Of a stretch of DNA of 4,399 bases, positions 1 to 4,399 are shown in pieces. The stretch is from a virus. Lineage: Duplodnaviria > Heunggongvirae > Uroviricota > Caudoviricetes. Position numbers and translations under genes: made by a program. The stretch lies in IMG/VR virus record IMGVR_UViG_2690316321_000003; one strand, 5' to 3'. Every line of letters starts with the position of its first letter. Within the stretch, counting starts at the first letter, position 1. The notes below the pieces were generated by a model. The model made no database searches. It was given only the letters and a program-made list of their open reading frames with translations, and was not told the origin of the DNA.

Positions 1-155
1 TTAATCCCGTTCAGAGCATCACTGCCGGGAACGTTCGTCCGGGCATGAAGATACCCCGCGCTCAGCGTGGCCTGCTGCTCAGACGCCCATGCAGGCGCAC
101 CGGATACGGCCAGACAGATGGCTGCGGACAACATGGCTGCACAAACTTTACGCAT
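1..155 (-). CDS. lom: Lom/Ail/PagC-family outer-membrane protein, N-terminal fragment (3' end lies beyond window start)
   Basis: Minus-strand ATG at 153..155 preceded by GAGAGG (complement of 161..166) with 5-nt spacing. Translation to the window edge: MRKVCAAMLSAAICLAVSGAPAWASEQQATLSAGYLHARTNVPGSDALNGI. This has a signal-peptide shape (basic N-terminus, hydrophobic core, AWA-S cleavage-like site) and the early mature SAGY motif resembles the T/S-V-G-Y start of lambda Lom/Ail/PagC. Position directly downstream of J matches lambda gene order. Not in the ORF track because it is truncated by the window edge. Confidence 0.6.
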   Translation of the reverse strand, partial: MRKVCAAMLSAAICLAVSGAPAWASEQQATLSAGYLHARTNVPGSDALNGI

Positions 156-176
156 AATTACCTCTCGCTTTTCTGC

Positions 177-204
177 AATAAAAAAGGCGCCATTTCTGGC
201 GCCC
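177..204 (-). terminator. Rho-independent terminator downstream of J
   Basis: Minus strand reads GGCGCCA-GAAA-TGGCGCC followed by TTTTTTATT: a 7-bp perfect GC-rich stem, 4-nt loop and U-tract, beginning about 20 nt after the J stop codon (223..225). On the plus strand the hairpin is followed by CGTATATGGG, not a T-tract, so it is oriented for minus-strand transcription. Confidence 0.55.
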
Positions 205-222
205 GTATATGGGTTATAAAAT

Positions 223-939
223 TCAGCTAATCGTGATACCTGCGGTGGATTTCTTCATCACCACAACAAGCAAATCGCTGATACTGGTTGTCGGTGTCCA
301 GTTATTGACCATTGAAGAAGAGACCGTAAACTTTAACGTCAACGTTCCCTGCCCCGCAGGCATATCAATAACGGAAGAAAAAACCGCCGGAGCATCCGTT
401 GTTGACTGGTTAAAAATTTCTGTCCCGTTTTTCGTTACCTGCAAACGGCATACAGAATAAACATAAGACTGTTGATTATTACTGCCATAATTTTCCTTCC
501 TGCTTCCTTTAAACAGCAGAGCCGGGATCATGACCTGTCGGTCAAACTTCTGATCATCACTAATCGTGACCGTAATGGTGCCGCTGGCATAAGTGCTCGT
601 GCGGGGGAAAGACTTGCTGACCGTTTTGACAATATCGCCTTCAATCTGGTTGGCGGACAGTTTCCCCTTAATCTGACAGTTCTCATTTATCGTGACGTTG
701 TTGAGCGTCCCTGAGTTCGCATTCACACTGCCACTGATATCCGCATTTTTAGCGGTCAGCTTTCCGTCTGATGTCAGGGAAAATGCAGGAGGATTGCCAC
801 CACTGGTAATTGTGGGAGCAATAAGGGTCTTAATCAGCGCTTCATTGATAAACGTCTGTCCCCCCTGCGTGACCAGTGCTGGAGTGGTGTTACCGTTCTC
901 CGGATTAATGAACGCAATCCTGTCTGCCGCCAGCAGCAC
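223..939 (-). CDS. J: Tail-tip host-specificity protein J, C-terminal receptor-binding portion (238 codons; in frame with and 6 nt downstream of the TAG ending the 992-aa J ORF)
   Basis: Track ORF begins at a GTG. Its product (..[26 protein letters not shown]...[44 protein letters not shown]...FDRQ...IDMPAGQG...VMKK...GI..) aligns with the C-terminal about 240 aa of lambda gpJ as I recall it (..[26 protein letters not shown]...[44 protein letters not shown]...). Same reading frame as 946..3924. No convincing Shine-Dalgarno upstream of the GTG, so independent initiation looks unlikely. Confidence 0.8.
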
Positions 940-945
940 CTGACT

Positions 946-3924
946 CTACATACCGTCAGGGGTATTCTCAATACCGGCACCGATACCCGCAATGTAAAGG
1001 CGACCATCCTGCATCTGCTGCAGTTTCACGGCCCACATACTGTTCAGGTTATTACTGGTGTCTGTCTGAACCTTTTGTATCTGCTGGATTGTTGCTTCCT
1101 GCTCGCCCAGTTTTTTGTCTGTCGTCGAGATGATTTCACTGCTTTTTTCATCCACATACTGACGAACCTGCGCAATCTGGCGTGCATTCTCCTCATTACT
1201 CTGACTGACCGTTTGCGTGATTTCGCTACTGACGTTGTCCACTTTCTGACTCACCTGGGATATGGCCAGTGACTGCTCATCATTTTTTTTAGCAACCAGC
1301 TGCGTGAGGCTGTTTTCAGTTTCCCCGATTTTTTGGGTCACCCCGGCAATATCACTCTCCAGTCGCTGATTGACCTCATCCTCCAGTTGCTCAACTTCAC
1401 TGCGCAATGCAGAGGCATTAATACGATCATTCAGCTCCTGCCCCAGCAGGGTGCTGTTTATTTTCCCTTCAAAAAAATTGAGATACTCTTCAGGATTATT
1501 ACCCGGCTGGCCGACAGCCTCCGCGAATGCCGATTTGCCAACGGTATTCACACTGCGAACATAAAAGTAATAATCATGGCCCGGCTTAATATTCTGGCCG
1601 GAGGCTACCCAGTACAGTGCCGTACCAAGATAGCGGGCAGATTTGTCCACCTGTGAGACATCTGAAATCTTCGTTTCAGAAAACCAGAACTCAAACTGTA
1701 CCGTCGGATCATAAACCGCAAGATGCGGCGTGGCGGTTATCTGAAAATAGCCCGGCGTCAGCTCAATCTGTGACGGCGCTGCCGGTGCGGCAATCCGGAA
1801 CGATACCGACGCCGGATCGCCCTGCTGTCCCCACGCATTTACCGCCCGGACTGTCAGCGTGTAACGCCCCAGCGCCAGTTGCCTGAAGCGGTATGTGGTT
1901 TCCGTCGTCCGGGCCGTGCTGACCAGCCGCTCACTGCCGTCATCCGCTGCCACGGTCAGGCGAAGAAGGAAGCTCACGCCCTTCACCACCTTCGGCGTGT
2001 CCCAGCGCGCCAGCACCTGATATTCCCCGCTGTCTGCGGTGACTTCGGCGGTCAGGTGCTGCACCGCTGGCGGCGTGACACCATTCACCGTGCCGCTCTG
2101 GTCGCCGTCAAAGTGCGCCCCGTTATCCACGATGGCCTCTTTTTCCGGTACATGCTGCACGGCAGTGATGGCATACGTGCCGTCGTCGTTCTCACGGATA
2201 CTCACGCAGCGGAACAGGCGCTGGCGCAGCGTCGGCAGCTTCAGCCCCCACACGCTGTACTCGGCAACGCCGTCAGGAACACGGCTCACTTTCACCTTCA
2301 CGCCGTCGGTGACGGACTGAACCTCCACGCTGACCGGATTCCCCTGCCCGTCAACCAGGCTTATCAGCGTGGTACCGGAGGATGGCAGCGTGATTTCACG
2401 GTCGAGCGTCAGCGTCCGGGTCTGGCTGTTCACCGCCAGCACGCGACCACCGGTGCTGATACCGGCATAGTCATCATCACAGATTTCAATGACATCGCCC
2501 GGTACATGGCGAAGCCCTTCTGCGCCCACGCTGAAATCCACGGTCTGCGTTTCCAGCAGTTCTGTTTTAATCAGCCACAGCCCGGCGCGGTGTGCCTGCC
2601 CCCGGCTGGTACAGCCAAAAGCATCCATCTTCGTGACGTTACGACCGTAACGGGCAATGGCCTGCGTATCCTCCACAAGCTCTGTCGCCGTCTCCCAGCC
2701 GTTGTTCGGGTCAATCCAGTTCACCTCAACGGCATTATGGCGGTCTTTCAGGGCGCTGAAGCTGTAGCGGAACGGCGCGCCATCATCCGGCATAACCACA
2801 TTACTGCGGTTATAGGTCCACACCTTATCCGACGCTCGGTCCTGCACGAACGTCAGCGTCTGCCCGTTCCATACCGGCATACAGCGCATCGCCGAGCAGA
2901 AATCACTGAGCACATCCCACGCCTTGCGCTGTGTGGTCAGGTACGCATTACAGGTGATGCGCGGCTCCGTGCCGCCAAAGCCGTCCGGCACTGACTGGTC
3001 GCAGTACTGGCCGATGACATACAGCGCCCATTTATCCACATCCGCCGCACCAAGACGTTTCCCCATGCCGTAGCGCGGATGGGTAAGCATATCCCACAGA
3101 CACCAGGCCATGTTGTTGCTGTATGCCGGTTTTAACGTTCCGTCCCAGATACCGCTGTATTGTCGCGTCTGCGGGTTATAGTTCGACGGCACCTGCAGAA
3201 TGCGCCCGCGAAGATGATAATTACGGCTCACCTGCTGGCTGCCGAACTGCTCCGAATCCACCTGTACGCCGACCAGTGCCGTGTTCGGGTAGCACTGTTT
3301 CACATCGATGATTTCGGTGTATGACGACCAGAGCGTTTTGTTCTGCAGCTGGTCTGTGGTGCTGTCCGGCGTCATCCTGCGCATCCGGATATTGAACGGG
3401 CGCGGCGGCAGGTTACCCACCACCACCGATGCCAGATACTGTGAGGTGGTTTTGCCTTTAATGGTGATGTCTTTTTCCGTCACCCAGCCACCGTTACGTT
3501 GTATCTGAACCAGCAGGCGGACTTCCGATGGATTCCTGTCCCCCTTTGAGGTGGTTTCCACCAGTGCCTGCACACCGAAGGTAAAACGCAGTCGGTCAAT
3601 GTTTGCCGACGTGATGGTCCGGGTGATCGGCGTGTCGTATTTCACTTCCGTACCCAGCACCGTCTCGGAGCCGGAGGATTCAAATCCCTCCGGCGGTGTC
3701 TGCTCCTGCTCACCGGCCCGGAACACCACCGTGACGCCGGAGATATTGGTATTCCCCTCACTGTCCAGCACCGGCGTACTGTTCAGCAGCACGCTTTTTA
3801 AGCCATCCACCGGACCTTCAACCGGCCCTTCACTGATGGCATCGATCACACTCAGCAACTGCGTGGATTTCAGGTTGTCCTTCGCTTCGCGCGGGGTATG
3901 CCCCTTACTGCTGCCTTTACCCAT
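946..3924 (-). CDS. J: Tail-tip host-specificity protein J (lambda gpJ-like central tail fiber), N-terminal 992 aa, ending at an in-frame TAG
   Basis: ATG at 3922..3924 with GGAG (complement of 3933..3936) 8 nt upstream. The N-terminus [34 protein letters not shown]... and roughly the first 830 residues match lambda gpJ nearly residue-for-residue from memory (e.g. ..[93 protein letters not shown]..). The ORF ends ..[14 protein letters not shown] then TAG at 946..948, where lambda has ..EGKLSQF.. continuing in frame. Confidence 0.95.
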
Positions 3925-3946
3925 TCCTCACGCTCCATAAACGACA

Positions 3947-3966
3947 AAACCGCCCGCAGGCGGTTT
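3947..3966. other. Perfect palindrome / stem-loop in the I-J intergenic spacer
   Basis: Plus strand AAACCGCC-CGCA-GGCGGTTT (8-bp perfect stem, 4-nt loop). On the minus strand it is followed by TGTCGTTTATGGAGCGTGAGGA-ATG, i.e. directly upstream of the J ribosome-binding site. Could be an attenuating or terminator-like hairpin, an RNA processing or stability element, or a protein-binding site. Confidence 0.3.
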
Positions 3967-3984
3967 CACATAAAACATTTTGCA

Positions 3985-4399
3985 TCAGCGACCAATCACC
4001 ACAACCTGACCACCATCCTCTTCGTCTGCCGTGCTGATCTCCTGAGAAACCACGCGTGACCCCACGCGCATTTCACCGAACAGAACAGGCAAAATATTGC
4101 CCTGGGCAACCATGTTATCCAGTGAGGAGAAATAGGTGTTCTGTTTGCCGTTATCCGTTGTCTGCGTTCGGGGGGTTTGGGGTTTAGGAGCCAGCATCTG
4201 TGCAACACCACCAAGCGTCATCGCTGCCCCCATAGAAAAGAGAATGTCACTGAAAGCGATACTGATTCCCGGCATCCAGATTGCCGTAGCAATCAGCGCC
4301 GCACCCAGCACTACCTGAAAAACACCGCCACTTTTGGCTCCCGCAAGACGCGGAACGATGTGGATCACTGCACCATTTGCCAGCGGCTCATTAAGACGG
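3985..4399 (-). CDS. I: Tail assembly protein I (lambda gpI-like), C-terminal 138 codons; 5' end lies beyond the window end
   Basis: Minus-strand frame is open from the window edge to TGA at 3985..3987. Translation ..RLNEPLANGAVIHIVPRLAGAKSGGVFQVVLGAA...MLAPKPQTPRTQTTDNGKQNTYFSSLDNMVAQGNILPVLFGEMRVGSRVVSQEISTADEEDGGQVVVIGR matches the C-terminus of lambda gpI from memory (..AVIHIVPRVAGAKSGGVFQIVLGAA...QTTDNGKQNTYFSSLDNMVAQGNVLPVLYGEMRVGSRVVSQEISTADEGDGGQVVVIGR). The track ORF 3985..4368 is only the part after an internal GTG. Confidence 0.9.
   Translation of the reverse strand, partial: RLNEPLANGAVIHIVPRLAGAKSGGVFQVVLGAALIATAIWMPGISIAFSDILFSMGAAMTLGGVAQMLAPKPQTPRTQTTDNGKQNTYFSSLDNMVAQGNILPVLFGEMRVGSRVVSQEISTADEEDGGQVVVIGR

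Follow-up and report, generated by a model that had tools for sequence, protein, structure and literature searches.

A diverged gpJ receptor-binding tip in a lambdoid prophage segment: a probable allele of the OmpC-binding A8/phi330 class

The C-terminal end of J in the lambdoid prophage segment described here departs from that of phage lambda, and the locus raises the question of which host receptor such a tip would recognize. The initial annotation reasoned that divergence from lambda gpJ implies a receptor other than LamB. We analysed the whole stretch of 4,399 nucleotides (hereafter, the window), which is a lambdoid I-J-lom segment carried on the minus strand (Table 1). Taken as a whole, the best explanation is probably that J ends in an OmpC-binding tip of the A8/phi330 class, acquired as a swapped module and cut off in this copy by a stop codon.

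Gene layout and the interrupted J frame

The window is the entire contig CYGJ01000030.1 of a short-read draft assembly (GCA_001286605.1), and it begins in lom and finishes in I. J has I on one side and lom on the other. The nearest complete genome, NZ_CP027550, is 97.9% identical over the window, and 82 of the 94 mismatches to it fall in window 1800-4399. Within the locus examined in that genome (1-12200), the prophage carrying J adjoins bioA/ybhB, in the vicinity of the lambda attachment site, and type III effector genes (nleH1-1 and an NleG family gene) are located beyond its side tail fibre genes. A G+C-rich hairpin with a run of T residues after it separates the stop codon of J from lom, and resembles a terminator annotated after J in phage 21; chance alone is expected to give one such match in the kilobase that was scanned.

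Table 1. Features of the window, with window coordinates, and identity of successive J segments to lambda J
Feature	J residues	Window position	Strand	Evidence and remarks
lom (Ail/Lom outer membrane protein), 5' part		1..155	-	PF06316; Ail/Lom in relatives; gene truncated by contig end
Terminator-like hairpin between J and lom		185..204	-	GGGCGCCAGAAATGGCGCCT then TTTTTATT; 1 such site expected by chance
J, tail tip attachment / host specificity		223..3924	-	1233 codons in one frame with one in-frame stop; ORF list, translation
Ig-like gpJ C-terminal receptor-binding domain, Pfam PF12421 (Ig_GpJ_C)	last 125	226..600	-	122.2 bits, cut-off 26.2
Diverged receptor-binding tip	1086-1233	226..669	-	Identity to lambda 40.5-43%, phi330 86%, A8 85% (126/148 over the 148-residue tip, a derived figure), phage 21 73%, 434 47%; against lambda J 40.5% is 62/153 columns, with 10 gap columns
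Predicted bottom hairpin L4		274..309	-	Corresponds to phi330 A1015-P1020 (ANNWTP); one-residue indel relative to lambda
Predicted bottom loop L3 (DAPA)		388..399	-	Loop in model; P186/A187 where A8 and phi330 have Q/G
Predicted bottom hairpin L2		466..507	-	5 residues longer than lambda; corresponds to phi330 E953-S962 (ENFNSNNQQS)
Predicted bottom loop L1		583..612	-	Between strands in model; corresponds to phi330 T918-Y921
Conserved junction island, fibre shaft to tip		665..819	-	87% DNA identity to lambda, the only such stretch in the distal third
In-frame TAG	codon 993	946..948	-	Splits J into 992-residue and 240-residue parts
Extra helical-shaft segment, ~100 residues	836-940	1105..1419	-	Segment not in lambda J; 101 gap columns relative to lambda
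Lambda-like J block (hub domains, two Ig/FNIII domains)		1432..3924	-	94% DNA identity to lambda over J nt 1-2493 (blastn)
Tail assembly gene I, 3' part		3985..4399	-	ORF list; relatives annotated as tail assembly protein; gene truncated by contig end
Proximal J	1-800			96.5% protein identity to lambda J
J segment	801-835			46% protein identity to lambda J
J segment	951-1000			50% protein identity to lambda J
J segment	1001-1085			76.5% protein identity to lambda J

The minus strand from 3924 to 223 is a single J frame of 1233 codons that is interrupted at 946-948. Because one J frame is broken by this TAG, what looks like a separate downstream ORF at 223-939 is the C-terminal part of J. Codon 993 is CAG (Gln) in NZ_CP027550, so the TAG of the window differs from it by one C-to-T substitution in the coding strand; the aligned residue in lambda is Leu. 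An amber suppressor such as supE, which inserts Gln, would restore the sequence of the relative exactly at this codon. A J frame that runs uninterrupted into this tip is absent from CYGJ01000030.1 and present in both NZ_CP027550 and STECUZB006. The intact gpJ of NZ_CP027550 has 1233 residues, and its gene is 97.8% identical in DNA to that of the window.

As sequenced, translation would end at codon 993 and reach neither the prism nor the tip, which would leave the tip unattached to the tail. A prophage with this sequence would be unable to produce an adsorbing tail, and a separately made fragment of 238 residues would have none of the hub domains by which J is anchored there. The J copy in CYGJ01000030.1 is thus probably defective, and this probable defect is all that the stop codon indicates.

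One could go further and regard the tip as the dead remnant of a J pseudogene that is silent on current host range, or regard the stop as a sequencing or assembly error. Besides the TAG itself, such readings draw on the nature of the window, a complete 4.4-kb draft contig that ends in repeated prophage genes. A contig bounded in this way means that assembly could have produced both the TAG and the mosaic in its exact form, and a chimeric consensus of several J copies may underlie CYGJ01000030.1. However, the tip protein is 100% identical to that of the intact J of STECUZB006, as is its DNA over 438 nucleotides, and it differs by one residue from the J of NZ_CP027550. The tip therefore exhibits no decay, which implies that the stop is either recent or an artefact of assembling repeated prophage genes from short reads. 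We regard the remnant or error reading as quite unlikely to be the better account of the locus. It is, moreover, compatible with an OmpC-binding module of the A8/phi330 class, since it concerns expression in this strain and not the identity of the module.

A mosaic J gene with a diverged tip

J of the window (1233 residues) was compared with lambda J (1132 residues) by global protein alignment, and blastn was used for DNA. The two genes are closely similar up to about J nucleotide 2493; there, where the helical shaft begins, the lambda-like DNA stops. Beyond this point, blastn finds a sole match to lambda, the island at J nucleotides 3106-3260, and the last 440 nucleotides of J give no blastn match to lambda. 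In protein, the prism is 50-76% identical to that of lambda. The shaft includes an extra segment of some 100 residues with no counterpart in lambda J. This segment is rich in E, Q, S and K, has a weak 29-residue self-similarity, and is present also in the intact relative; should it adopt a helical form, we estimate that the central fibre would gain roughly 15 nm in length.

The initial annotation correctly saw that the C-terminal tip has diverged from lambda gpJ, but drew its limits too tightly. Divergence begins near window position 669 rather than 600, and the peptide concerned is 148 residues rather than about 120; the interval 223-600 to which it had been assigned is that of the PF12421 match plus the stop codon. 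The proposal of a different receptor also depended on identity to lambda gpJ staying low upon proper alignment, and in global alignment over these 148 residues it is 40.5%, with no similarity in DNA. The motifs named as scattered anchors (GDIVK, FDRQ, IDMPAG.G and VMKK) have cores that are invariant in all seven of the J proteins aligned. With residues numbered along the 240-residue C-terminal fragment, these cores are G103-D104-x-V106-K107, F134-D135-R136-Q137, D194-M195-P196-x-G198-x-G200 and K231-K232.

Base composition changes along the gene as well. The last 444 nucleotides have a G+C content of 46.2% and a GC3 of 54%, compared with 58.8% and 71% in the first 2400 nucleotides of J, and with 55.6% and 63% in the lambda tip. 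These values agree with the earlier description of the segment as A/T-rich, and, together with the end of lambda-like DNA and the conserved island, they bear out the modular exchange that had been suggested from it. The pattern is nonetheless finer than that of a single swapped tip. Window 586-765 (residues 61-120 of the fragment) has 90-100% DNA identity to phi330, whereas its flanks have 57-73%, and we interpret this interval as a sub-domain recombination patch that spans the junction of prism and tip. The junction contains the swap point, lambda residue 964, that was used to build gpJ chimeras, and looks like a natural recombination joint. Judged by these identity profiles, the distal third of J (shaft, prism and tip) appears to differ in ancestry from the lambda-like proximal two thirds, and to be itself a mosaic. 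Exchange of distal J as a module at a conserved junction is already known, and the window confirms it.

Fold and predicted receptor loops of the tip

Window 226-669 encodes the receptor-binding domain of gpJ, and this domain has an Ig-like fold. The PF12421 match spans residues 116-240 of the fragment, and the domains FNIII-A_GpJ, Phage-tail_3, Ig_J, Ig_J_second and Phage_Tail_Tip are found upstream in the same frame. In the AlphaFold2 model, fragment residues 105-232 form a confidently predicted Ig-like sandwich. Over the domain, mean pLDDT in 10-residue blocks is 74-96, and drops to 64 only in the two blocks that contain the L2 and L4 hairpins. A comparison of structures had been proposed in the initial annotation, and the Foldseek matches of the model are led by A8 gpJ (9wca and 9wcb; 83-87% identity), followed by lambda (8xck and 8xcj; 53-54%), with E-values from 2e-28 to 3e-22. 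Identity to 9wcb is 87% over 174 Foldseek-aligned residues. A phmmer search of PDB sequences likewise finds A8 gpJ (E = 5e-125) ahead of lambda J (2e-73). The entry 9wca is A8 gpJ in its closed form and 9wcb is the open form with OmpC of E. coli EDL933, while 8xck and 8xcj represent the lambda fibre, closed and LamB-bound, respectively.

According to the lambda structure paper, four bottom loops of the tip insert into LamB. That paper gives no residue numbers for them, and loops L1 to L4 were therefore defined from the AlphaFold2 model of the window. Every indel in the tip relative to lambda resides in a model-placed bottom loop (L1, L2 or L4). L1 is four residues shorter than in lambda, and four to six shorter when lambda and 434 are both considered, and L4 is one residue shorter than in lambda. 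Loop lengths and sequences of lambda are absent from the window tip, and the loop sequences of the two are unrelated. The loops correspond instead to A8 and phi330 in length, with a short L1 (TSTY), a long L2 (EN..SNNQQS) and a similar L4 (.NNWTP). In an AlphaFold3 prediction from the phi330 paper, the L2 hairpin points into the OmpC barrel and L4 contacts its rim (PMC12502783).

The closest known systems are A8 and phi330. Comparison with J proteins of phages whose receptors are known, as the initial annotation had proposed, gives 84-87% identity to these two OmpC-class tips. A8 gpJ shares PF12421, the loop lengths and an identical junction sequence with the window, and is 84% identical in the Ig domain. 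It differs at 22 of 136 Ig-domain positions, and these include the predicted OmpC-contact regions at Y153 and G154, at the tip of L2, and at M212 and V213, at the base of L4. L2 thus reads ENYGS in the window and ENFNS in A8, and L4 reads SSMVNNW and SSGANNW, respectively. The Stx2a siphophage phi330 (vB_EcoS_phi330, PV189401) has an identical L1, TSTY, and is near-identical in DNA over fragment residues 61-120. It has 20 substitutions in the Ig domain, with F/N in L2 at the window's Y/G, and G/A in L4, as in A8, at M212/V213. In the prism upstream (fragment residues 1-60), DNA identity to phi330 falls to 57-72%. The J of phi330 belongs to another phage backbone (Pankowvirus), and its proximal part has 77% identity to the window.

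Other tips are more distant. The J tips of phage 21, ev017, 4A7, 1H12 and mEp460 have the same architecture and a long L2 (ENFNSNNQQSY), and form a class at 73-74% identity. Tips of the 1A2 class, which are found in O157-type prophages and bind EDL933-type OmpC, share the domain and the extreme C-terminus with the window, but have a longer L1 (RDSRAPERWPS) and a shorter L2 (HEKEHTDIY). Their identity to the window is ~62-64%, a figure that is unreliable for 1A2 itself because its sequence comes from a machine-read supplement with dropped letters. 1A2 falls in the P0020/P0036 class, separate from that of the window. The 434 tip shares the domain and the invariant core motifs, but is 47% identical and has L1, L2 and L4 of other lengths, so the window tip is not of the 434 type. 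Nor is it of the lambda type, at 40.5-43% identity. Lambda, whose tip binds LamB, has the same fold, probably the same triggering mechanism, and 94% DNA identity over the proximal 830 J residues; it differs in the indels in L1, L2 and L4, in the higher G+C content of its tip, and in a J that is without the 100-residue shaft segment.

Receptor, age and spread of the allele

Work on two relatives of this tip identifies OmpC as the receptor of the class. A8 is the J tip of a natural E. coli prophage, and in the chimera it takes the place of lambda J from residue 964 (Brodel et al., Nature 2024, PMC11338833). When the OmpC-binding side fibre was replaced, A8 particles delivered DNA into cells deleted for lamB and ompC only if OmpC was supplied in trans (PMC11338833). 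A8 accepts OmpC of both K-12 and EDL933, whereas 1A2 accepts that of EDL933 and not that of K-12, and together the two reach 21 of 23 OmpC variants (PMC11338833). The long-tailed Stx2a phage phi330 forms no plaques on the Keio ompC knockout, and Plac-ompC rescues plaque formation (PMC12502783). Ur-lambda has equal titres on ompC+ and ompC- cells, and OmpC-binding side fibres are therefore not essential for plaques. Since side fibres are dispensable in this sense, the total dependence of phi330 on OmpC suggests that its J tip is responsible, a point that A8 shows directly.

Tips outside this class can also use OmpC. The literature assigns OmpC to the 434 J tip (the classical h434 host range), and the paper on Gifsy-1 describes a further J that uses OmpC, with a C-terminus 18% identical to that of lambda. 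A 2026 preprint on receptor prediction covers GpJ of Drexlerviridae and leaves out the lambda tip. Among the papers that we searched, none assigns a receptor to phage 21, whose genome announcement is silent on the matter, and none gives receptors for the PhiR and mEp phage collections, whose J tips are 85% identical to that of the window.

The sequence relationships place the tip of the window in the A8/phi330 class, and suggest that OmpC is its most likely receptor and that LamB is a very unlikely one. The earlier proposal of a receptor other than LamB is thereby supported, by homology to the experimentally tested A8 and phi330. Its original grounds are insufficient, however: the 434 and A8 tips are 47% identical to one another and yet both use OmpC, so divergence alone predicts no change of receptor. 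By the same token, it could be supposed that the tip still binds LamB and that its divergence represents neutral drift over a conserved interface, given that the fold is common to the lambda and window tips, that the core motifs are invariant across the J tips compared, and that tips as little as 47% identical can have one receptor in common. We find this highly improbable. Identity to lambda is 40-43%, indels affect three of the four loops that insert into LamB, A8 works in lamB-deleted cells when OmpC is present, and phi330 fails on the ompC knockout. Modelling in the lambda structure paper also showed that OmpC loops clash with the lambda tip, and the LamB and OmpC interfaces are therefore not interchangeable.

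Lambda J can gain the use of OmpF through a handful of substitutions, and 85% identity to an OmpC-binding tip therefore leaves the receptor unfixed. The history of the allele bears on how far its receptor might have moved. Over the domain core (fragment residues 127-240), the comparison with phi330, which here stands for the A8/phi330 class, gives a pS of 0.71 and a dN of 0.13, with dN/dS of ~0.06. Synonymous sites are thus near saturation, which indicates that the allele is not a recent variant of A8 or phi330 but an old sister lineage. The low dN/dS points to long separation under purifying selection and to a conserved job, and the same kind of receptor is therefore expected. Diversifying selection at the interface was considered and rejected, since substitutions relative to phi330 are not enriched in the bottom loops (7/40, compared with 12/88 elsewhere; Fisher p = 0.37) and dN/dS points the opposite way.

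The allele is rare. At a DNA identity of at least 95%, it occurs in ~17 of 5,426 complete E. coli genomes, where the tip is 99-100% identical to that of intact J genes, while the next class, at 80-90% DNA identity, is found in 737 of the same 5,426. A protein database search returned mostly J fragments from draft assemblies, and we used it for allele classes rather than for genomic context. The classes are discrete, with identities of 99%, 84-86%, 74-75%, 67-69% and ~60%, and nearly all of them are from E. coli. Proteins matching the tip are mostly J fragments, or carry the tip fused to unrelated N-termini (terminase, DUF1441 or HTH), which suggests that J is often broken or misassembled in draft E. 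coli genomes. In NZ_CP171883 (positions 1242-3342 of the examined locus), a second prophage has tip DNA that is 100% identical but a shorter J of 1160 residues, and the same tip therefore travels with different J backbones and cargo. This prophage adjoins ssrA, and cdtABC, encoding cytolethal distending toxin, is located downstream of its tail fibre genes.

Age and rarity are both relevant to the proposal that the tip retains the fold and the mode of docking, but binds another trimeric porin (OmpF, PhoE or OmpN) or OmpC variants outside the range of A8. The lineage is old at synonymous sites, the 20 to 22 substitutions relative to phi330 and A8 include several in or beside the predicted contact hairpins, related alleles have allele-specific OmpC ranges, and a frequency of ~17 in 5,426 genomes would fit a narrow host range. 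Against these points, the dN/dS value indicates conserved function, the loops are not enriched for substitutions, the loops have kept their lengths and most of their residues (SNNQQS, NNWTP), and the 434 tip uses OmpC in spite of its 47% identity. We therefore consider this proposal unlikely, though it deserves to be taken seriously, and favour an OmpC-binding tip of the A8/phi330 class. Within this class, the window allele may recognize a different range of OmpC variants, which is plausible given the contrast between A8 and 1A2. That it has shifted to another porin, or to OmpC variants beyond those of known J tips, seems to us unlikely. If true, such a shift would represent a natural receptor switch inside one tip class and would provide a new targeting module for engineered lambda.

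If the tip functions as its relatives do, a mechanism of triggering can be proposed from the complexes of lambda with LamB and of A8 with OmpC. The tip would form the distal end of gpJ, the trimeric central fibre of the lambdoid prophage's tail, and its three domains would engage the three barrels of a trimeric porin by inserting their bottom loops. Docking would spread the bottoms of the domains apart and bring their tops together. New hydrogen bonds would then twist the prism, the helical shaft would flip, and the FNIII strings would detach, so that the tail tip could open for ejection of DNA. The closed structure of A8 and its open structure with OmpC suggest that the same sequence of events applies to the A8/phi330 class.

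J tips set which strains a lambdoid phage can infect, and this includes the toxin-carrying prophages of EPEC and STEC. They are also in use as swappable modules that aim engineered lambda particles at E. coli of the gut. On the basis of its sequence and predicted fold, the tip of the window appears to be an uncharacterized allele of a known and structurally solved class of OmpC-binding J tips. It would thus be one more natural variant of a class whose OmpC complex has been solved, and it might widen the set of OmpC variants that can be targeted.
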